From an uncultured Gammaproteobacteria bacterium (lineage in GTDB: Bacteria; Patescibacteriota; Microgenomatia; 2-02-FULL-39-11): a stretch of 64,000 bases of DNA. Each line of letters starts with the position of its first letter. The stretch's first letter is position 1. Below, in pieces: positions 10,935 to 22,672 of the stretch. The notes under the pieces were generated by a model. The model was not told the origin of the DNA and made no database searches. It was given only the letters and a program-made list of their open reading frames with translations. The stretch lies in assembly GCA_964446235.1 (NCBI GenBank), contig CAYUNW010000003.1, forward strand, positions 7,182 to 71,181. The letters run 5' to 3'. The translations under genes and the position numbers were made by a program.

Positions 10935-11335
10935 GGGGATGCTTTGATCGACGGGAATGCACTTTGAAAAACAGCAAGCCGACTTTGATATACAGTCGTA
11001 AAACAAATATTGAAAAATAAATGCTAATAAAATAGCAGACAGGCTTTTTGCTTTAAACACCCTTACAGGTGGAAGGCAATTAGCTTATGCAACTGCTTGA
11101 ATAAAGTAGTTAGCATACGCTAGCAGTACTTTCTTCCGGTGAGGTAGGGCTAGTGTTTATTTAGCCGGAACGTCAGGTATCAATTGATTCGCTTGATACC
11201 GGAGAGAAAAAGAATCAAACTTTTTTTGGTTTATTTGTCGGTTATTGCCAAAAAAAGTAAATAAACCGACTAAGCTTGTAGAAGTTTTTTGAAAAGCTTC
11301 TTCGGACTCCGCCTCACTGGCGGACATCTCCACCA
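10935..11335 (+). ncRNA. ssrA: tmRNA (transfer-messenger RNA)
   Basis: The 5' end GGGGAUGCUUUGAUCGACGGG pairs with the 3' end AUCUCCACCA, including the G3:U pair. Putative tag frame 11023-11100 (ANKIADRLFALNTLTGGRQLAYATA*). Located after smpB. Confidence 0.85.
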
Positions 11336-14770: not shown

Positions 14771-14857
14771 GGAGGGATGCCGGAGCGGTTAAACGGCCAG
14801 GTCTCGAAAACCTTGGGGGATGAAAGTCCCACGTGGGTTCGAATCCCACTTCCTCCG
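14771..14857 (+). tRNA. tRNA-Ser (anticodon CGA)
   Basis: Acceptor GGAGGGA/TTCCTCC, anticodon loop CTCGAAA, long variable arm, T-loop GGTTCGAATCC. Confidence 0.85.
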
Positions 14858-14859
14858 CT

Positions 14860-15327
14860 ATGAAAAGAGAATTTTCTGCAGGTGGAATTGTTTATCAAAA
14901 AGTCAAAAGTCAAAAGTCAAAAGTCAAAAGTGACCTTTTATGGCTTGTTTGTCAGCATAGTCATCATAAAGGGTGGGTTTTCCCCAAAGGTTTAATTGGC
15001 GATCATAAAAAGGGAGAGTCAAGTGTTGATACGGCTGTCAGGGAAGTAGAGGAGGAGACGGGTGTGAAGGCAAAAATTATCACGAAATTACCAAAACCAG
15101 CTACTTATTTTTATGTTTGGGATAAAGAGAAAAGATTCAAAACTGTTATTTATTATCTAATGGAGTATGTATCTGAAGATGAAAAAAAGAAAGATAAAGA
15201 GATGAGCGCTGTAGAATGGCTCGATGAGGGTGAAATGAAAATTAGATTATCTTATAAATCAGACAAATTTGCTTTTGAGGAAGCACTGAAATTATTTAAT
15301 AATAATTCAAACGCGCCCATAGCTTAA
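14860..15327 (+). CDS. NUDIX hydrolase
   Basis: Nudix box GWVFPKGLIGDHKKGESSVDTAVREVEEETGV. The start is 3 nt after tRNA-Ser, and the last 15 nt overlap tRNA-Arg(CCG). Confidence 0.85.
   Translation: MKREFSAGGIVYQKVKSQKSKVKSDLLWLVCQHSHHKGWVFPKGLIGDHKKGESSVDTAVREVEEETGVKAKIITKLPKPATYFYVWDKEKRFKTVIYYLMEYVSEDEKKKDKEMSAVEWLDEGEMKIRLSYKSDKFAFEEALKLFNNNSNAPIA
14898..14931 (+). repeat. Heptanucleotide tandem repeat (AAAAGTC, about 4.9 copies) inside the NUDIX 5' region
   Basis: Period-7 repeat read directly from the sequence. It encodes KVKSQKSKVKS. Confidence 0.9.
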
Positions 15328-15384
15328 TGGATAGAGTAGCGGTTTCCGGAACCGCTGATGCCAGTTCGATTCTGGCTGGGCGTA
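15313..15384 (+). tRNA. tRNA-Arg (anticodon CCG)
   Basis: Acceptor GCGCCCA/TGGGCGT, anticodon stem GCGGT/ACCGC with loop TTCCGGA, T-loop AGTTCGATTCT. Confidence 0.85.
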
Positions 15385-15388
15385 CAAA

Positions 15389-15988
15389 ATGAAAAGTCAA
15401 AAGTCAAAAGTCAAAAGTCAAAAATTAGTTGATTTCATTTTTGAAGCCAGCACTTTAACCAGACTTAAAAGGACCGGTTGGCAAATTCTGGGAGCAGGTA
15501 ATTCGGAAACCATAGCCAGTCATACATTTATGGTTTCGATTATCAGTTTAGTTCTCGGGCAAATTATGAAAGCAAATATTGAAAAAGTCCTACTCATGTC
15601 CCTTTTACATGATTTTTCCGAAACAAGAACCGGTGATATTTATAAACTGGCTGATTATTATGTCAGCGCCAATACCCCAAAAGCGGATTTTGACTCCTTT
15701 TCCAATCTGCAAGATAGCCAGATATTTTTTTCACTAATTGAAGAATGTCATCTTAAAAAAAGTCTGGAAGCTCAAATTGTCAGTGACGCTGATGTATTAG
15801 CTTTAATCATAGAGCTTAAAATTTTAATCGAAAACGGTAACACTAACGCAAAAGAATGGTTAGATGCTAATCTGAACTTTTTGAAACTTGAAGAGTCGAA
15901 AAAATTAGGAATAGAAATCCAAAAAGGCAATTCTCAAAGATGGTGGGAGAAATACCGTAAACTGATTCACAAATCTACTGCAAAATAA
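15389..15988 (+). CDS. HD-domain phosphohydrolase (YfbR-like)
   Basis: H..HDFSETRTGD.. metal-binding pattern. Confidence 0.75.
   Translation: MKSQKSKVKSQKLVDFIFEASTLTRLKRTGWQILGAGNSETIASHTFMVSIISLVLGQIMKANIEKVLLMSLLHDFSETRTGDIYKLADYYVSANTPKADFDSFSNLQDSQIFFSLIEECHLKKSLEAQIVSDADVLALIIELKILIENGNTNAKEWLDANLNFLKLEESKKLGIEIQKGNSQRWWEKYRKLIHKSTAK
15392..15423 (+). repeat. Heptanucleotide tandem repeat (AAAAGTC, about 4.6 copies) at codons 2-12 of the HD gene
   Basis: Same unit as at 14898-14931. It begins immediately after the ATG. Confidence 0.9.
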
Positions 15989-16004: not shown

Positions 16005-16092
16005 GGAGAGGTCGCATAGTTGGTCTAGTGCGTTCGCTTGGAGAGCGAATACCACCGTAAGGTGGTCGCGAGTTCGAATCTCGCCCTCTCCG
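16005..16092 (+). tRNA. tRNA-Ser (anticodon GGA)
   Basis: Acceptor GGAGAGG/CCTCTCC, anticodon stem TTCGC/GCGAA with loop TTGGAGA, long variable arm, T-loop AGTTCGAATCT. Confidence 0.9.
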
Positions 16093-16196
16093 CACTGTTT
16101 GTTAATATTTTTGGTCCATATAAACGACATGCTTTTATTTACAGCTAAGTGGATATTATTTAAGCGATAGACAGACTCATTTAAGACATTTTATAT

Positions 16197-17198
16197 ATGA
16201 AGTTATCATCCGTTGATGTTTTGCTGACAAATTTTTGCAATCAAAGTTGCCCATTTTGTTTTGCCAGATTAGAAATGGCAAACTCCAAGAAAAAACAGAT
16301 GTTATATAAGGATTTTCGTTTTTTAGTGGCTAAACTTAGAGAAGCTCAGGCGGACTCGATAAATTTTTTGGGGGGTGAACCGACGTTGCATAAAGAATTT
16401 CCAAAAATTTTGGAATTAGCAATGAAAAATTTTATATTTGTCCGTATTTTTACAAACGGTATTTTCCCCAAAAATTCCAAACAGATAATCAGAAAGTACT
16501 TAAAAAGAATATATTTGAATTTTAACGTCAGTACACCGTCTTTTATAAATCAACCTAATATACGAGAGATTGTAATGAATAATATTTCGGAGTTTGTAGG
16601 TAAAACACAGGTTACTTTGGCTGTAACAGACGTTTTTCAGAACAATATGATAAAAAATAATGTATTTGCAAAATTTGATAGAGATATTATAAAAAAAGCA
16701 AATATCAGAATCGGCATCATGACTCCGATTGTAAATGATAAAAATCTTATTACCATAGAAGATTTCCCAAATATCGGAAACAATATCTGTCCGTTAATAA
16801 AATATTTAGAAGAGATAGGTCCTCCAAGGAGGATCGGTTTTAACACCGGTATGACTCCCTGTATGTTTAACGTTAATCAACGTAAGTTTTTGGCTGATAG
16901 GGGAATATCCATAAAACCTGATTGTCATTTGGGGTTTAATGATGTTTGGTTCAATGTGTCTACCGATTTATCGACGTTTAAGTGTTTTCCGTTATCTTCA
17001 ATAGATATTTTTAATATTACAAAAGATACTGATTTGAAGAAACTGCGTCTAAAATACCTTAATTTACAAAAGAGATACAATAAAATTCATTTATTACACT
17101 GTGAAGATTGTCCGGTAGATAAAAAAATACCGTGTAACGGGCCATGTATTGCTTTCAGAATCAATTCGCATAATAATATAATTAAGAGGGCTAATTAA
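16197..17198 (+). CDS. Radical SAM protein with C-terminal SPASM/twitch-like Cys cluster
   Basis: CNQSCPFC (CxxxCxxC) at residues 14-21, GGEPTL, and C-terminal HCEDCPVDKKIPCNGPC plus further Cys residues. Confidence 0.8.
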   Translation: MKLSSVDVLLTNFCNQSCPFCFARLEMANSKKKQMLYKDFRFLVAKLREAQADSINFLGGEPTLHKEFPKILELAMKNFIFVRIFTNGIFPKNSKQIIRKYLKRIYLNFNVSTPSFINQPNIREIVMNNISEFVGKTQVTLAVTDVFQNNMIKNNVFAKFDRDIIKKANIRIGIMTPIVNDKNLITIEDFPNIGNNICPLIKYLEEIGPPRRIGFNTGMTPCMFNVNQRKFLADRGISIKPDCHLGFNDVWFNVSTDLSTFKCFPLSSIDIFNITKDTDLKKLRLKYLNLQKRYNKIHLLHCEDCPVDKKIPCNGPCIAFRINSHNNIIKRAN

Positions 17199-17207
17199 AT
17201 ATATTAT

Positions 17208-17759
17208 ATGCGTATACTTAAAATTTCATTTTTACTGATAATTTTTATTGTAGCTTTAGAAACAGGAGTATTGATATATTTATACTATAAAAAACCTGAA
17301 ACAACATCGATTCAAAATGTTCCATTAGGAAAAACCGGTTTTGAAGCCAACACTATGAAAGCTTGGCTTTATAATGCTATTGACAGTATTCCTACCGATA
17401 CAGCAGTTCATCCAGATGCTTATGCTGTTGACAGCATAAAAGCATATTTTCACGCTTCTGCCAATTTCCGTAAAAAAATGCTATTAAGCATATCGGATAC
17501 AGGTAAGATAACCGCTCTAGATTTGGGTAAAAACATCGTTACATTACAATCTTTGGAAGGAGAAAAAATTGATACTTTTAAATTACCAACGGACGAGATA
17601 AATCAAATTACTAAGTATTATTTAATCGAGTCAAATTCCGGCAGTCAGAAAGATGCAAGTAAATCAGACATGAATATCGGTGATATAATTGAATTTAATT
17701 CAAACTATGATATGACTACGGGTAAATACACTTTAATGGATATCATAATAAAAAGATAA
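17208..17759 (+). CDS. Single-TM hypothetical protein
   Basis: 183 aa with an N-terminal TM. Coupled to the rSAM gene by a 9-nt gap. Confidence 0.4.
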   Translation: MRILKISFLLIIFIVALETGVLIYLYYKKPETTSIQNVPLGKTGFEANTMKAWLYNAIDSIPTDTAVHPDAYAVDSIKAYFHASANFRKKMLLSISDTGKITALDLGKNIVTLQSLEGEKIDTFKLPTDEINQITKYYLIESNSGSQKDASKSDMNIGDIIEFNSNYDMTTGKYTLMDIIIKR

Positions 17760-17761
17760 AA

Positions 17762-18018
17762 CATGAGAAAGAAAAAACAATATCAGAAACCTAAGGTAAA
17801 AATTCGTAAATTAAGTATCAATTTATTTATCAATGAACAGAATTTAAATTCTATGAATAGGATATTACTAGCTGCAGAACATCATTTAACATGAAAACCA
17901 AAAAAAATACCGAAAACCTAATGTTAAAATTCGTAAATTAAGCATCGATTTATTTATCAATGAATAGAATTTAAATTCTATGAATAGGATATTACTGGCT
18001 ACGGAACATCATTTGGAA
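17762..18018 (+). repeat. Tandem duplication (2 copies of about 128 bp) of the small-ORF region
   Basis: Copy 2 (17890-18018) aligns to copy 1 with scattered substitutions, one indel and a CAG-to-TAG change. The terminal MNRILLA(A/T)EHHL segment stays intact (17980-18024). Confidence 0.85.
17763..17894 (+). CDS. 43-aa small ORF, candidate precursor peptide
   Basis: MRKKKQYQKPKVKIRKLSINLFINEQNLNSMNRILLAAEHHLT. It starts 3 nt after the previous stop and is absent from the ORF track (below 60 aa). Confidence 0.4.
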   Translation: MRKKKQYQKPKVKIRKLSINLFINEQNLNSMNRILLAAEHHLT

Positions 18019-18026
18019 AAGTAAAA

Positions 18027-18872
18027 TCACTTAAAATAAATTTTTCTTGAAAGGCAACTTGGACAATTTCCACAATGAATATCAGAGTTTCTGTCGCAAC
18101 TGAAAGTTTTTGACAAGTCTAAACCGAAGTCTTGGGCAAAACGAACTAAATCATTTTTTGTATAATAAAAATTTTTAGCTTTTTCTACAGGTCCGCTCAA
18201 TTGCCATCTGTAATCACCCAATACCACGCAGAAAAACAGATTTATACTTCTAAGACATGTAAGGGTAGATTCTCTATTTACACGATTATTTTCCGGAATA
18301 AACCCGGTGAGTATTGTATTGACAGTTATACCTTTTTGATATTTCAAAAATAAGGCATATTCATAAATTCCGAATATATAATGCCCAAATCTAGCCGGAT
18401 TATTTGTGACGGAAACATAATCCTTTTTTGCTTGATGGTCGTGAATCAGATTAGGTAAGGAAGTTGGAAAATCATAAAAGATGTTTTTATCATTTTTAAT
18501 ATTTAGGAAGGAAAACAATTTATTGCCTTTTACTATAAAGACATCTTGATAATTTTTTGGAAATTTAGCTTTAAATAATTTGGAGTAATGACGTATAGAT
18601 TTTATCTGGCCGCTTCTTATATTTTTCCCAAAACAGAAATATACAGGATACACATTATAAGAGTATTTTTTCAGAAGCATATACCATAAACCGGTAGAAT
18701 CCAATCCTCCGGATAATGCTAAGATTACTGATGAGTTTTTCTTTGGCAGTTTGAAGGTATAATCTCTTTTATCAAGGAAAATTTGATCAATTTGTTTAAG
18801 TACTTTAGGATCTTCGAAATTGCCTTTTGAGCCAAATAGCACCTGATAATCCAAATTATAATTCATTTTCAT
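18027..18872 (-). CDS. QueC-like PP-loop ATPase
   Basis: LSGGLDSTG PP-loop and C-terminal zinc motif CGNCPSCLSRK, as in QueC. The rest is divergent. Confidence 0.6.
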   Translation of the reverse strand: MKMNYNLDYQVLFGSKGNFEDPKVLKQIDQIFLDKRDYTFKLPKKNSSVILALSGGLDSTGLWYMLLKKYSYNVYPVYFCFGKNIRSGQIKSIRHYSKLFKAKFPKNYQDVFIVKGNKLFSFLNIKNDKNIFYDFPTSLPNLIHDHQAKKDYVSVTNNPARFGHYIFGIYEYALFLKYQKGITVNTILTGFIPENNRVNRESTLTCLRSINLFFCVVLGDYRWQLSGPVEKAKNFYYTKNDLVRFAQDFGLDLSKTFSCDRNSDIHCGNCPSCLSRKIYFK

Positions 18873-19923
18873 AAATTACGGGATAAGATTCCTTGACAGA
18901 ATTTGGCGTGATAAATATAACTTTGGCATATTTTTTCAAATCTTCTATGTTAGTCACACCCTGATACCACATAGCTCGGGTAACGCCTGTAAGTAGTTTA
19001 CGTATAATATTTGATAAACTACCACAATAAGTAACTGATGATGTAATTCCTTCTTCAAAAACATCATTTGACATTTTTAAACGATTTGTATTTTTGGGTA
19101 AATTTGGCTTTAAAGCATTATATGTTGTTGAGCCGGCGCTTATTTTATACTTTTTTTTATCAACGGTTTTGACTTTACTACTTGCTTCATCAGTTCCTGC
19201 AAAAAGTCCACCGATCATGACTGAATCAGCTCCAAAGACCAGCGCTTTTACAATATCAGCCGGATTTCTTATCCCACCATCTGAAATAATTGGAATATTA
19301 TATTTTATAGCTACATCAGCACATTCTTTTATCGCCGATAATTGCGGTCTGCCGATAGCAGTCATGAGTCTAGTAGTACAGTGTGATCCTGCGCCTATAC
19401 CAACTCTTATGTTATCCGCTCCCGCATGAATAAGATCCAGAACTGCTTGTTTGGTAACTACCACGCCTGCAGAAATTATTGTTTTAGGATATCTTTTTTT
19501 AAATTCTTTAATAAATTGGAAAACTTCTATCGAGTGAGCTTGAGCAGAATCAAGCAATAAAATATCCGCGCCAGACTGAAGCAGTTTTTGGTATTTAGAA
19601 ATTTTTCGTATATCAAAATCAATAATTGTTGCTCCTACCTTAACATGATGCAGTTTTGTCTCAAAAATTTGTTCCAATTGTTTGTCAAAATTCTGGTAAG
19701 GATGGATAAAACCAATCCCTCCCATTTTTCCGATGGCTACGGCCATTTTGGTTTCAGTGATATTTTTCATCGGCGCTGATGATAAGGGGATATTCAGCTT
19801 GATGTTTTTGGATATATTTGTCGTAAGATCAAATTTATTGTTTTTGAAATTTTCCGATAATGTAGATTTTCTAGGTAAAAGTAAAACATCGTCAAATGTG
19901 AACTCAATATTTTTATTAATCAT
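18856..19923 (-). CDS. IMP dehydrogenase/GMP reductase-family TIM-barrel enzyme (no CBS insert)
   Basis: FDDVLLLPR start, catalytic loop GIGAGSHCTTR, ISDGGIR, GADSVMIGG. Confidence 0.75.
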   Translation of the reverse strand: MINKNIEFTFDDVLLLPRKSTLSENFKNNKFDLTTNISKNIKLNIPLSSAPMKNITETKMAVAIGKMGGIGFIHPYQNFDKQLEQIFETKLHHVKVGATIIDFDIRKISKYQKLLQSGADILLLDSAQAHSIEVFQFIKEFKKRYPKTIISAGVVVTKQAVLDLIHAGADNIRVGIGAGSHCTTRLMTAIGRPQLSAIKECADVAIKYNIPIISDGGIRNPADIVKALVFGADSVMIGGLFAGTDEASSKVKTVDKKKYKISAGSTTYNALKPNLPKNTNRLKMSNDVFEEGITSSVTYCGSLSNIIRKLLTGVTRAMWYQGVTNIEDLKKYAKVIFITPNSVKESYPVIYENEL

Positions 19924-19927
19924 AAAA

Positions 19928-21241
19928 TTATTTCATTGAATATACCGGTGCAATATCCGCTCCAAATCTTTGCGCAAGGGAATATGTATAGGCTCCCTGA
20001 TTTGTAATCATAACAATATCTCCAATCTTAAATTTTTTCGCGTAAGCATAAAATCCCCAAAGATCTAATTGCTGAGTACATAATGAACCGTATATCCGAT
20101 AATTAATTTCTGAATTTGAAGGATTTGAGAGGTTTATTATAGGAGTGTAATCATATGTTCGGCTTCCGATATTTACTAAATTAAGTGATCCATTCAATAT
20201 AATTATATTATCTTTTATATCGGCAACAGTGCATATGATATTCATCACGTCAGTAACAATTGACTTGCCAGGTTCATAAAATAATTTAATTTTATAATTA
20301 TTAGGTATATTTAATTTTATACTATCGGTAATTTCTTTAGCGTAAGTATCAATGTTTATTACGGGAGGAAAATCATACTTTTTACGAAAGTTAATATTTC
20401 CGTCAATAATACTATTTACCATGGGGGATATAGTTCCATTTAGTAATTTCCATGGATAATATCCATATGAATTTTCTGATCGAAATCCACCACCAATATC
20501 AATAAATTCAATATTTTCAATCATTTCACTTGAAAACTTATTTTTTAGATAAGATCCTATTCGTCTAATATTGTCATGATAATGACTGATGTTTCCATTG
20601 CCACTGGTATGAAAATGAATACCGCTTAAATTGAGGTAGGGAATTTGTTTAAGAAGTGTCCACGCTTGATAGAGTTCTTGAATATTTATTCCAAATTTAT
20701 CCCATGATTTCGACTTGGCATCCTTGATTCTTATTCCGACTGTGATTTTTTTATTTGACGGTTTTGTTGATTTTAATAAGTTAATTTCATTCAAACTGTC
20801 AATAATAAGAATAATATTATTTTTGAGAGAAATAATACGATTTATATCATCTAGTGTTTTGCCAGGTCCATTGATAATAATATTTTTTGCCTTGGAATCG
20901 ATTGCGTTTTGCAGTTCCCAAAGAGAACCAACCTCCAATCCATACTGTTTTTGAAGCACCTGATCCAAAATTAACTTATGATAATTAGCTTTGATAGAAT
21001 AATATCCTTGTGATAATGGGTAATATTTATGGAAAGCTTTTTGGAATTTTACTAAATTGGTTTTAAGAGCTGCAATATCCAATAAGTAGAATGGTGTTGG
21101 GTATTTTTTTGTTATGGAAAGGATTTTTTTACTTAACTTGGTGTATTTACTTATATTAAATGGAGATTGAGAATGGAAAACAGGGTCATTTATATGTTTA
21201 ACAATATTTTTAAAAGGTTTTTTTTTGTTTGAAATAATCAT
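19928..21241 (-). CDS. PLP-dependent decarboxylase, Orn/DAP/Arg decarboxylase family
   Basis: YYSIKAN (PLP Lys), HFHTSGNG, GGGF, EPGKSIV, GSLCTQQLD. Confidence 0.75.
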   Translation of the reverse strand: MIISNKKKPFKNIVKHINDPVFHSQSPFNISKYTKLSKKILSITKKYPTPFYLLDIAALKTNLVKFQKAFHKYYPLSQGYYSIKANYHKLILDQVLQKQYGLEVGSLWELQNAIDSKAKNIIINGPGKTLDDINRIISLKNNIILIIDSLNEINLLKSTKPSNKKITVGIRIKDAKSKSWDKFGINIQELYQAWTLLKQIPYLNLSGIHFHTSGNGNISHYHDNIRRIGSYLKNKFSSEMIENIEFIDIGGGFRSENSYGYYPWKLLNGTISPMVNSIIDGNINFRKKYDFPPVINIDTYAKEITDSIKLNIPNNYKIKLFYEPGKSIVTDVMNIICTVADIKDNIIILNGSLNLVNIGSRTYDYTPIINLSNPSNSEINYRIYGSLCTQQLDLWGFYAYAKKFKIGDIVMITNQGAYTYSLAQRFGADIAPVYSMK

Positions 21242-21243
21242 GC

Positions 21244-22083
21244 TTATATATTATTTAGCATATTAAATACCTCATTTTCATTTATATTGAAATATAATTC
21301 GTAAAAATCATACTTATATATGATACTGTTTAAGGTTTTTAAGTATTCAGATAAATCTTTTTTTGGATATTCAAGAAAATTTTTGTTATATGTTGTGAGT
21401 TTAATTAAATTATTTAATACAGTTAATTTATTTTTTACTTTTATTAATCTACAAACAGGTGATTTGTGGATAAAAAAAATACTATTTATGTGAATGGGAG
21501 TATTATTTTTTTTCTGATAAATATTTCTTTGAATAAATGGAGTTTGGAATAAAAAAAACTTATCTCCGATTTTTCTAATTACGGTCATGTCATCATTGAG
21601 GGGAAGATAAGTTTTTGCTAATAGTTTAGCAATCGTAGATTTGCCTGAATTGCTTTCCCCCAAAAAGACAAATGCCCCCTTTTTAGTTAAACAACTTGAA
21701 GCATGAAGCGTAAGGCCATGATTAACCAAGAGTAAAGAATTGAAAATATTCCGTAGAATGATATCAAAAAGATCCATGCTTAAATAATAAAAGGAAGTGA
21801 ATTCAAACGAATTTTCGTGTAATAAAAACTCCAATAAATATTTTTTTTCCAGGTTTATTTTTTTTATGAAAATATCATTGGGAATATCTTTGATATTTAT
21901 AATGCAATGGATTTTTTCAGGATTTTTTTGAGTTAAATAGTTTTTTAAATATTTTTTTATAATCTTGATCAGTTTATTTTTGGAAAGATTATATTTTGTT
22001 TCATAAAAGTTAATTCGGAAATTGAATTGCGCAATTCCTGCCGTAATTGTATAAATTATTCTCATCAATGGATAATTTAGCAC
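21244..22083 (-). CDS. HPr-kinase-related P-loop protein
   Basis: LHASSC..KGAFVFLGESNSGKSTIA is typical of the HprK C-terminal-like fold found next to PqqD-type proteins. Confidence 0.6.
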   Translation of the reverse strand: MLNYPLMRIIYTITAGIAQFNFRINFYETKYNLSKNKLIKIIKKYLKNYLTQKNPEKIHCIINIKDIPNDIFIKKINLEKKYLLEFLLHENSFEFTSFYYLSMDLFDIILRNIFNSLLLVNHGLTLHASSCLTKKGAFVFLGESNSGKSTIAKLLAKTYLPLNDDMTVIRKIGDKFFLFQTPFIQRNIYQKKNNTPIHINSIFFIHKSPVCRLIKVKNKLTVLNNLIKLTTYNKNFLEYPKKDLSEYLKTLNSIIYKYDFYELYFNINENEVFNMLNNI

Positions 22084-22119
22084 AAAAATATTATAGTTTT
22101 GAAGCAGAACTAAATAAAT

Positions 22120-22383
22120 CTATTCAATAACTTTTTTCTTTTTCAGAGTATTTATAAATTCTTTAACATCTTTAATTGCCTTCGTTTTTTCGACTGTATA
22201 AGATTTGGACAGTTTTTCGGCAATATTGTCAATATCTTCACCTCTTTTTAGGCAGTTGAAAATATATGATGCGGTGTCATTAAGATTCAAAAGACAGGAT
22301 TTTTCACTGTCAAAAATAACCGTTTGTTTATCCAGTTTTTGTACCAGTAACCCTTTTTTCAATTTAAACTTATTTTTTGCCAT
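22120..22383 (-). CDS. PqqD-family protein (RiPP recognition element-like)
   Basis: 87 aa. ..LLNLNDTASYIFNCLKRGEDIDNIAEKLSKSYTVEKTKAIKDVKEFINTLKKKKVI matches the PqqD size and pattern. Confidence 0.65.
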   Translation of the reverse strand: MAKNKFKLKKGLLVQKLDKQTVIFDSEKSCLLNLNDTASYIFNCLKRGEDIDNIAEKLSKSYTVEKTKAIKDVKEFINTLKKKKVIE

Positions 22384-22495: not shown

Positions 22496-22582
22496 GGAGA
22501 GGTGTCGGAGTGGTTGAACGAGCTGGTCTTGAAAACCAGTATAAGGGCAACCTTATCGCGAGTTCGAATCTCGCCCTCTCCG
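22496..22582 (+). tRNA. tRNA-Ser (anticodon UGA)
   Basis: Acceptor GGAGAGG/CCTCTCC, anticodon stem CTGGT/ACCAG with loop CTTGAAA, long variable arm, T-loop AGTTCGAATCT. Confidence 0.9.
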
Positions 22583-22672
22583 CAAAAAAACGTTATTCTA
22601 ATTTTAGCTATTGAATTTTTCCCGTCTTATGCTATAAGTATTTTATTAGGAAATTTATTAAGGGAGGTTTTT

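Follow-up and report, generated by a model that had tools for sequence, protein, structure and literature searches.

Within the 64-kb stretch of contig CAYUNW010000003.1 analysed here (the window, to which all coordinates given without an L-number refer), a compact group of genes lies between two tRNA-Ser genes. One strand encodes a radical S-adenosylmethionine (rSAM) enzyme, a single-pass membrane protein and a 43-residue peptide followed by a tandem copy of itself, and the other carries five closely spaced genes, for a PqqD-like protein, a P-loop protein, a pyridoxal phosphate (PLP)-dependent decarboxylase, a protein of the IMP dehydrogenase (IMPDH)/GMP reductase family and a PP-loop ATPase of the QueC family (Table 1). 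All eight open reading frames (ORFs) that an earlier note on this DNA had described are found where it placed them, with the same spacings (gaps of 36, 2 and 4 nt and one overlap of 17 nt); if the P-loop gene starts at ATG, which is the JGI choice, instead of GTG, the first gap is 54 nt, not 36. We find that the QueC-like gene and most of its neighbours recur together in other genomes, and that this cassette is a cluster for a peptide made by the ribosome and modified after translation (RiPP), with a new hallmark enzyme.

Taking the NCBIfam equivalog cut-offs and the Pfam models' own thresholds as criteria for family assignment, we obtained Pfam matches above threshold for Radical_SAM (52.4 bits), QueC (46.4), IMPDH (328.6), Orn_Arg_deC_N (85) and PqqD (53.6), so that these assignments of the earlier note held in profile searches; the P-loop protein passed no model in our local Pfam or NCBIfam copies. 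None of the cluster enzymes reached an NCBIfam equivalog cut-off, and thus all of them are divergent members of their superfamilies.

The peptide gene encodes MRKKKQYQKPKVKIRKLSINLFINEQNLNSMNRILLAAEHHLT, with a lysine-rich N-terminus, a putative leader motif Y7-Q-K-P-K-V12 and a C-terminal ...ILLAAEHHLT. The motif [Y/W]xxPx[L/V/I/F/A] is the one by which discrete RiPP recognition elements (RREs) bind the leaders of lasso peptides and of linear polyphosphorylated peptides (LPP), as seen in structures and by mutagenesis (PMC13381572). In the window peptide it answers, with V as its last residue, to the YxxPxL leader motif of lasso clusters, which a PqqD-like B1 protein recognises, and the same predicted motif is found in all relatives. 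Small ORFs beside QueC-like genes fall into two families, both of which have a lysine-rich stretch followed by YxxPx[I/L/V]. In type 1 precursors (39-53 residues) there follow the motif [D/E]xx[L/F][L/F/M][L/A]A and then a few highly variable tail residues, and a hidden Markov model (HMM) of this type, applied to 3,079 small ORFs, gave matches at E 1e-12 to 1e-19 solely beside QueC-like genes, at 19 loci. Type 2 precursors (22-46 residues) end in ...T/S-D/G/S-Y, and a variant at loci with a YcaO gene ends in GG[T/S/C]CSRxEKxC. An encoded peptide with a conserved N-terminal part containing YxxPx[ILV] and with variable tails, present at 19 loci, is what is expected of a RiPP precursor.

Searching 5.8 billion proteins by two word-indexed searches returned 11 relatives of the P-loop protein and 10 of the QueC-like protein. 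The longer contigs with relatives of the P-loop protein (L001-L006) show the order PqqD, ScmC, rSAM/SPASM; one group of them has an additional small ORF that separates the ScmC gene from the rSAM gene, and a short contig (L009) holds ScmC and PqqD only; IMPDH, QueC and decarboxylase genes are absent from these SynChlorMet-type layouts. The ten QueC-like relatives were extended to 27 loci (L010-L036) by a pattern scan of genomes and metagenomes that used a five-sequence alignment, the ten-sequence alignment being too diverse. At <80% identity the 27 loci amount to 21 further lineages, or 22 with the window. JGI contigs L007 and L008 are 100% identical to the window, belong to the same organism and count as no independent evidence.

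Partner genes at the QueC-like loci were assigned by tblastn and all-against-all clustering and, as many of the contigs are short, their counts are lower bounds: a protein of the single-pass membrane family is found beside the QueC-like gene at 16 of the 27 other loci, a ScmC-like protein at 15, an rSAM homologue at 14, PqqD at 13 or more, an NTP_transf_5 protein at 12 and a DUF4330-like protein at 7. Since the same gene set recurs across many diverged loci, this co-occurrence is beyond chance. The conserved unit is a rare RiPP-type cassette composed of a QueC-family ATPase, an rSAM enzyme, a stand-alone PqqD, a ScmC/HPr-kinase-fold protein, a single-pass membrane protein and a lysine-rich precursor, and has so far been seen only in small-genome (candidate-phyla-type) metagenomic contigs. 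The precursors, the RRE and the recurring gene set bear out the idea of a peptide-modification cluster, which the earlier note had put forward; its view of the cluster as an orphan gives way to membership in a definable, rare family.

The QueC-like protein is the member that ties these loci together. Its Pfam match covers mainly the C-terminal zinc-ribbon region and the SGGLDS loop; the loop and the zinc motif C-x8-C-x2-C-x2-C are both there, the AlphaFold model (pLDDT 80) finds the QueC structures 3bl5 and 2pg3 as its top matches, in keeping with a QueC fold, and the sequence profile of the family has Cap9 as its best match in the PDB. Of the 20 QueC-like proteins that are complete, about 15 are extended at the C-terminus by 130-160 residues, which form a PqqD/RRE domain (hhalign 98.6%, E 8e-16), and the Pfam PqqD model also matches the fused domain of the L013 protein. 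Being fused to an RRE is strong evidence that the enzyme acts on a leader-bearing peptide; the QueC-like enzyme is tied to peptide recognition.

Table 1. Features of the cluster and of its immediate borders in the window.
Feature	Position	Strand	Basis or remark
tRNA-Ser(GGA)	16005..16094	+	ARAGORN, Rfam; last 29 nt (16066-16094) are the left repeat copy
Radical SAM enzyme with SPASM-like C-terminal domain, probable peptide maturase	16197-17198	+	Pfam, conserved Cys
Single-pass membrane protein	17208-17759	+	Motifs shared with the cassette family, by eye
Type 1 precursor peptide, 43 aa	17763-17894	+	Peptide HMM, leader motif
Degenerate tandem copy of the precursor gene (pseudogene)	17895..18026	+	DNA identity to copy 1
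QueC-family PP-loop ATPase	18027-18872	-	Pfam QueC, motifs, AlphaFold model
CBS-less IMPDH/GMP-reductase-family protein	18856-19923	-	Pfam IMPDH
Fold-type III PLP-dependent decarboxylase (Orn/DAP/Arg family)	19928-21241	-	Pfam Orn_Arg_deC_N
ScmC-family P-loop protein, HPr-kinase/PEPCK fold, probable peptide kinase	21244-22083	-	PF27840, fold match
Stand-alone PqqD-like RiPP recognition element (peptide chaperone), 87 aa	22120-22383	-	Pfam PqqD
tRNA-Ser(TGA)	22496..22584	+	Last 29 nt (22556-22584) are the right repeat copy

QueC proper binds its substrate through the motifs YxQxHxxE, VPxRN and YPDC, the Tyr of which is essential (PMC13082051, from which our motif definitions are taken). In the cassette family YPDC reads [ITV]P[EDN][DN] and YxQxHxxE is not recognisable, and the window protein scores 39.8 against the cut-off of 150.3 of the QueC equivalog TIGR00364; canonical QueC identity was ruled out on these grounds. 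The 7-deazaguanine-binding residues of QueC and Cap9 are partly kept, P-D/E being retained, and this partial retention is neither proof nor exclusion of a nucleobase substrate. Since the stacking Tyr is replaced by I, T or V, we think it more likely that a peptide carboxylate is activated than that a nucleobase is transferred in the way of Cap9. It is distinctly unlikely, in our estimate, that the QueC-RRE enzymes define a new RiPP class in which a nucleobase-type or small-molecule carboxylate is conjugated to a peptide in the manner of Cap9, or a peptide carboxylate to an amine, with the decarboxylase and the IMPDH-like protein of the window supplying the partner; a peptide-nucleobase or peptide-polyamine product is possible. 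In agreement with the earlier note, to which no comparable pathway was known, we found no literature account of a QueC-like enzyme linked to RiPP-type peptide recognition: a 2026 survey of the QueC family makes no mention of peptides, RiPPs, radical SAM or PqqD, a 2025 survey of RREs makes none of QueC, and the paper on nitrilobacillins treats QueC solely as a nucleobase nitrile synthetase (PMC13060819).

The other members of the cassette fit a peptide-maturation system. The rSAM enzyme has the motif CX3CX2C and, further on, C222, C243, C263, C302, C305, C313 and C317, all invariant in 10 homologues, and its family profile matches the structures of GDGT-MAS, SkfB, SuiB and CteB. The earlier designation as rSAM/SPASM stands in so far as the Radical_SAM match and the seven invariant C-terminal cysteines are concerned; the Pfam SPASM model gives no match, and the cysteines, by their sequence pattern, are best called SPASM-like. 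The PqqD protein (53.6 bits against a cut-off of 23.4) provides the RRE expected of a RiPP cluster; among NCBIfam models it comes closest to two for lasso PqqD chaperones, whose cut-offs it does not reach (46 and 42 bits), and its homologues adjoin ScmC-like genes in related loci.

The P-loop protein has the Walker A motif GESNSGKST, and an identical database protein bears a precomputed match to the Pfam family PF27840 (ScmC). Its AlphaFold model is confident for residues ~120-279 only, the C-terminal half; the Foldseek matches at E <= 0.001 are all structures of phosphoenolpyruvate carboxykinase (PEPCK) or of HprK/P, and the profile of the family matches PEPCK and HprK as well (HprK 1ko7 at E 0.003). 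The relationship to HPr kinase noted earlier is thus confirmed, and the protein has the HPr kinase/PEPCK fold and is probably a peptide kinase. The membrane protein shares with the cassette family, judged by eye, an N-terminal transmembrane segment with a conserved Glu and a C-terminal D[LM][KN][VI]GD, and BLAST at E 1e-5 made no link between the two; export, immunity and anchoring are candidate roles.

Partners vary among the relatives. YcaO (170 bits) and a nitroreductase-type dehydrogenase (88 bits) are found at five loci each, together covering six loci, and the rSAM gene is present too at some of these (at least one YcaO-type locus, L036). The YcaO/SagB-type nitroreductase variants lie at L016 659-2769, L028, L030, L031, L032 and L036 8482-9561, the YcaO protein ending in PHP[LF]P, and three of these loci (L028, L031 and L036) contain Cys/Ser-rich precursors (...VWGG[TSC]CSRxEKxC). 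With both YcaO and rSAM enzymes among the partners, the QueC-like-RRE enzyme is combined with more than one core chemistry, and the swapping of partner modules among relatives is typical RiPP modularity. The NTP_transf_5 proteins often have an N-terminal S24/S26-like serine-peptidase domain, which in three proteins scores 18-23 bits, just below cut-off; examples of such fusions are L011 6873-8144 (with a GESMRP-type motif), L036 854-2107 and L020 3472-4680.

The tandem arrangement of the precursor gene, which had been read as a duplicated 43-codon ORF, is a real duplication at the DNA level (120 nt, 88-89% identity to copy 1), but the second copy contains no intact ORF: a 1-nt deletion in an A8 run breaks it, there is no in-frame ATG and a CAG codon has become an in-frame TAG. 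The same sequence is present in three independent assemblies, L007 and L008 included. The second copy is a pseudogene, occupying the place where relatives have a second, shorter precursor gene; that it acts as a functional type 2 precursor was ruled out, for it has no in-frame start, an in-frame stop and no HMM match. A -1 slip on the A8 run (A_AAA_AAT in the ATG frame, window 17891-17965) would yield MKTKK(K)YRKPNVKIRKLSIDLFINE, which would stop 3 residues past the predicted leader end and whose length is near that of the short type 2 precursors; this is probably coincidence or a trait of the pseudogene.

Short precursors ending in Tyr (...TDY, TGY, TSY, ASY, CSY) lie at L010 9730-9816, L011 12564-12695, L012 10942-11010, L014 2622-2714, L022 8920-9018, L025 9701-9811 and L026 1640-1750, among others. 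Their predicted cores comprise 3-6 residues (TDY, TGY, ASY, LTGY) at an LPP-like spacing of 16 residues from the leader Tyr, and they recall precursors of the mycofactocin or PQQ type. As most related loci have such a short second precursor, and as an rSAM-SPASM enzyme, PqqD and a C-terminal Tyr together repeat the MftA/B/C pattern, the cassette might be thought to make a peptide-derived small molecule or redox cofactor similar to mycofactocin or PQQ, and there are indeed weak NCBIfam matches to PqqE and to the mycofactocin maturase. These models are far under cut-off (25.8 vs 265 and 28.6 vs 381 for mycofactocin and PQQ), though, equivalents of MftD, MftE and MftF are absent, the type 1 tails are hypervariable, unlike those of cofactor precursors, and the window has no Tyr-ending precursor at all, which makes a cofactor very unlikely.

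The cluster is exactly bracketed by a perfect 29-nt direct repeat that forms the 3' ends of both tRNA-Ser genes, the two copies lying 6,490 bp apart; within the window the 29-mer has these two sites only, the two further tRNA-Ser genes of the window differing there. G+C drops to 0.27 inside the bracketed cluster, no integrase is present, and the repeat could mark an old island insertion or a recombination between tRNA genes. Low G+C and this location are features that a defence island would also show, and the QueC-like family has Cap9 as its best PDB sequence match, PADLOC's QueC model reaches 54 bits and its pVip models match the rSAM enzyme in its N-terminal half at 55 bits; a Cap9/QatC-like QueC, a viperin-like rSAM enzyme and a P-loop NTPase would then modify a protein or nucleotide against phages. 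We consider this extremely unlikely, given that the viperin likeness does not go beyond the generic core of rSAM enzymes (54 bits vs a cut-off of 180) and the seven-Cys domain is not viperin-like, that CD-NTase, Cap10, QatA, QatB and QatD are missing, and that RRE domains, peptides with a leader motif and YcaO/dehydrogenase partners indicate peptide maturation. There are no homologues on viral contigs, and a phage origin of the cassette was rejected for the same reason. Scans for promoters and terminators gave nothing exceeding shuffled expectation.

The two genes that fall outside this picture are those of the IMPDH-like protein and the decarboxylase. Both are absent, by tblastn, from all 27 other QueC-like loci and thus from 21 of 21 other lineages, so that a check of co-occurrence proposed in the earlier note turned out in two ways: the QueC-like gene keeps company with rSAM, PqqD, ScmC-like and precursor genes at up to 16 of the 27 loci, and the IMPDH-like and decarboxylase genes at none of them. 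The IMPDH-like protein, for all its 328.6 bits in Pfam, lies below every NCBIfam cut-off (294 vs 481.5 for the IMPDH equivalog TIGR01302; 204 vs 397 for NF003470, the best model of GMP reductase). It keeps the Cys loop GSHCTTR together with the invariant His, and the Arg-Tyr flap dyad of IMPDH is alignable neither in it nor in any of ten relatives aligned. The decarboxylase scores 121 bits against the LysA cut-off of 297.9, with FslC as its second-best NCBIfam match (83 bits); in Pfam its N-domain passes, and its C-domain stays at 18.7 against a cut-off of 23. Canonical IMPDH, GMP reductase and LysA identities were ruled out by these cut-offs together with the motif checks.

Judged by similarity, the IMPDH-like protein is one of a large family whose members come from candidate-phyla bacteria and DPANN archaea: 1,293 relatives lie below E 1e-60, typically of ~370 residues, CBS-less and 40-56% identical, which are called IMP dehydrogenase or GMP reductase where the source names them (GMP reductase by NCBI) and whose named organisms are Shapirobacteria, Pacebacteria, the Microgenomates group, Woesearchaeota, Pacearchaeota and one Methanoperedens. 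From this taxonomy and from gene content alone, the organism of the window is taken to be of the candidate-phyla type. Around orthologues 47-50% identical to the window protein, the IMPDH-like gene is joined by HAD and methyltransferase genes in L037 (407-2149), and by PLP decarboxylase and HAD genes in L038 (5873-9763), L039 and L040 (4710-7767), divergent from a glycan operon of Methyltransf_24 (MT24), GT2 and Wzy_C genes. In L038 a methyltransferase gene stands between the decarboxylase and IMPDH-like genes, and in L039 genes for a nucleoside hydrolase and a diphthamide-synthase-like protein come after the module. An ornithine/diaminopimelate (Orn/DAP)-type decarboxylase, an IMPDH-like protein and an HAD phosphatase form a recurrent module in candidate-phyla genomes. 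In the three neighbourhoods examined (by gene calls, in L038 also by tblastn), no peptide-maturation genes are found near the IMPDH-like orthologues.

The decarboxylase itself has about 85 representative relatives below 1e-30, the closest 36-38% identical, several of which are fused to ATP-grasp ligases. It is 25-26% identical to the decarboxylases beside the IMPDH-like orthologues, those of L038 and L039 being 40% identical to each other. A joint transfer of the two genes, as a single module, out of a glycan-adjacent locus is therefore unsupported, the IMPDH-like genes being orthologous and the decarboxylases not. Comparison of L012 9340-11292 with L039 4009-7125 shows that a QueC-like-PqqD pair and the decarboxylase-IMPDH-like pair (L038, L039) hold the same position beside orthologous MT24 genes (52-55% identity), as if a conserved glycan operon had next to it a slot with variable content; both modules tend to neighbour the same operon.

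Because of both absences and of the non-peptide contexts of the IMPDH-like orthologues, we read the two genes as a lineage-specific insertion into the cassette operon and not as part of a conserved pathway. The packing speaks against this reading, since genes separated by 2-4 nt, with a 17-nt overlap between the IMPDH-like and QueC-like genes, are expected to be co-expressed and may be functionally integrated. The five genes on that strand could then constitute one pathway, in which the decarboxylase and the IMPDH-like protein supply a purine or amine block and the QueC-like enzyme joins it to the peptide, giving a nucleobase or polyamine conjugate. Cap9, of the QueC family, is able to link a nucleobase's carboxylate with the amine of a protein; the ATP-grasp partners of the decarboxylase relatives are amide ligases and FslC is an N-acyl-ornithine decarboxylase, which suggests a logic of ligation followed by decarboxylation; the pairing of IMPDH-like orthologues elsewhere with a non-orthologous Orn/DAP-type decarboxylase may be functional; and the QueC-like protein of the window, alone in being without an RRE domain, may have changed its role. 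Yet the two genes are missing in every other cassette lineage, the IMPDH-like protein comes from a very large family, of which the three neighbourhoods examined contain no peptide genes, an IMPDH product such as XMP offers no carboxylate to a QueC-type enzyme, and the papers searched gave no precedent for IMPDH-family enzymes or fold-III PLP decarboxylases in RiPP tailoring. We regard such a pathway as unlikely. The coupling to purine-type enzymes and a decarboxylase, which the earlier note itself had made dependent on conservation in related genomes, is a weak claim, and a tailoring or co-substrate role of the two proteins in the cassette is doubtful.

Taken together, the cluster is probably best explained as a RiPP cluster of a rare family defined by a QueC-family ATPase, with the IMPDH-like and decarboxylase genes inserted into it. 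From the gene content, the family and fold assignments, the co-occurrence, the RRE fusion and the conserved precursors, we infer the following working, in which every chemical step is a proposal. The 87-residue PqqD protein would bind the 43-residue precursor through its YQKPKV leader and present it to three enzymes. The SPASM-like rSAM enzyme would carry out radical chemistry, for example a cross-link, on the C-terminal part, and the ScmC/HprK-fold protein would phosphorylate a Ser or Thr of the precursor, as do LppK (PMC13381572) and the paeninodin kinase PadeK, which phosphorylate hydroxyl groups. The QueC-like enzyme would adenylate a carboxylate and exchange AMP for a nitrogen nucleophile. 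QueC converts a carboxylate to an amide and then to a nitrile on its own substrate, with free ammonia. In the cassette the carboxylate would most simply be the peptide C-terminus or Glu39, giving an amide and perhaps then a nitrile. The single-pass membrane protein would travel with the system, and the IMPDH-like protein and the decarboxylase would be unrelated passengers or, less likely, extra enzymes for tailoring or for supplying a co-substrate.

Several observations weigh against this account. A product or activity has been seen for no member of the cassette family, and the three assemblies in which the exact cluster is available (the window, L007 and L008) have identical sequences, so that selection cannot be assessed. 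The QueC-like protein of the window is the shortest of all, ending 8 residues past the zinc motif, and lacks the RRE extension; it would rely, if on anything, on the stand-alone PqqD. The peptide HMM finds no type 2 ORF in the window, which carries type 1 only, and of the LPP genes those for the peptidase, for the NTP transferase and for an MsbA-type exporter are likewise missing, as in a stripped-down version. With one of its two peptide genes a pseudogene as well, the window version is atypical and could be decaying.

Two features lie elsewhere in the window. The neighbouring ORFs at 14833-15327 and 15389-15988, with tRNA genes interleaved, contain near-identical KSQKSKVKSQK-coding repeats of AAAGTCAAAAGTCAAAA-type DNA (window 14833-15420), and a transfer-messenger RNA gene (10935-11335, Rfam 120.6 bits), an ordinary feature, lies upstream of a ComF-like gene.

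If QueC-like-RRE enzymes act on peptides, a new enzyme family is added to RiPP biosynthesis and the QueC scaffold has one more setting, the third beside the synthesis of tRNA/DNA bases and the modification of proteins against phages; an amide or nitrile synthetase of the QueC type that works on peptides would also be of interest to biocatalysis. A peptide-nucleobase conjugate, if formed, would represent a type of natural product not known before. Conspicuous as they are, the purine and decarboxylase genes probably lie outside the core of the system, which with 5-6 genes and a peptide of ~43 residues is compact and testable and comes from uncultured bacteria whose specialised metabolism is almost unknown.

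Among the systems to which the cluster can be compared, the glycan-adjacent module of L038-L040 shares the orthologous IMPDH-like protein (47% identity, GSHCTTR, no Arg-Tyr dyad) adjoining an Orn/DAP-type decarboxylase. The window lacks the HAD, methyltransferase and glycan genes of that module, and L038-L040 in turn lack peptide-maturation genes. With Cap9 (type IV CBASS) and QatC the window enzyme has in common the QueC fold, the SGGxDS loop and the zinc motif. Cap9 joins the adenylate of 7-carboxy-7-deazaguanine to the N-terminal amine of a protein, and its authors foresaw further systems of such kind. Cap9 and QatC have other partners, whereas in the cassette an RRE or a leader peptide would do the targeting; the deazaguanine-stacking Tyr of Cap9 (YPDC motif, Y115) is I, T or V in the cassette family, and neither the eight proteins nor the related loci include CD-NTase, Cap10, which is TGT-like, QatA, QatB or QatD. 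The chemistry that we propose would be analogous to that of TsrC, ScdTA and PesC of nitrilobacillins, PP-loop enzymes that amidate or nitrilate peptide C-termini (PMC13060819), namely carboxylate adenylation, amide formation and, optionally with a second ATP, conversion to the nitrile. These enzymes are asparagine-synthetase-like with a glutaminase domain, whereas QueC-type enzymes use free ammonia.

SynChlorMet (SCM; NCBIfam TIGR04248-TIGR04251, PF27840) has the same trio of PqqD-like, ScmC-family P-loop and rSAM/SPASM proteins, and the nearest ScmC homologues (L001-L006) occur in the order PqqD, ScmC, small ORF, rSAM/SPASM, the small ORFs bearing KKYxxPx[LI]. Cys-rich small ORFs with this motif lie at L001 5404-5586 and at L002 8990-9118 and 11042-11224, and an RRE-binding leader motif seems common to ScmC-associated peptide systems. 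The SCM loci differ in having neither QueC-like genes nor the single-TM family and in their Cys-rich precursors, the window precursor being without Cys. Window scores stay far from the SCM equivalogs TIGR04249, TIGR04248, TIGR04250 and TIGR04251 (15.4, 17.1, 24.9 and 27.7 against cut-offs of 125, 100, 400 and 400), and we found no literature on SynChlorMet.

Lasso clusters of the paeninodin/pseudomycoidin type resemble the cassette in the best NCBIfam matches of its RRE (below cut-off), the YxxPx[L/V/I] leader, the HprK-like kinase and NTP-transferase tailoring genes and a PP-loop ATP pyrophosphatase as core enzyme. The pair of PqqD and HprK-like proteins does parallel phosphorylated lasso clusters and, as the earlier note had also observed, there is no lasso cyclase or B2 protease: no cluster protein matches the asparagine synthetase model, and none of the eight has a transglutaminase-type protease domain, relatives having the S24/S26-like domain instead. 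The fusion of this domain to NTP_transf_5 in relatives has its analogues in Firmicutes lasso clusters, for which fusions of B2 and a nucleotidyltransferase are reported, and in the SpI-like peptidase that LPP clusters have as a separate protein. The lasso PP-loop enzyme is an asparagine-synthetase-like cyclase, that of the cassette a QueC-family enzyme with a zinc ribbon; the cassette, unlike paeninodin-type clusters, has an rSAM enzyme, and the window precursor has neither Thr at leader position -2 nor, in register, Asp/Glu at core positions 7-9.

The LPP clusters of Bacillota (Popov et al., Nat Commun 2026, PMC13381572) share with the window an HprK-like kinase and a discrete RRE of the PqqD type. 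They also have in common with relatives of the window cluster an NTP transferase and a serine peptidase of the signal-peptidase type (S24/S26); precursors show a conserved N-terminal YxxPxV leader and variable C-termini, and the clusters often sit inside glycosyltransferase or capsule loci. Only two members of the LPP core set, the RRE and the HprK-fold protein, occur in the 64-kb window; a peptidase and an NTP transferase are found in relatives, where they are fused, and in LPP the peptidase is free. The LPP leader runs on as VLxHQxIxFET, which is absent from cassette precursors, LPP clusters are without QueC-like, rSAM and YcaO enzymes, and their hosts are Bacillota, those of the cassette candidate-phyla-type. 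LPP and paeninodin-type lasso clusters are the closest described relatives of the cassette, which stands apart from both in having as its constant member a QueC-family enzyme, usually fused to an RRE, together with an rSAM or YcaO module and, in relatives, two types of precursor.

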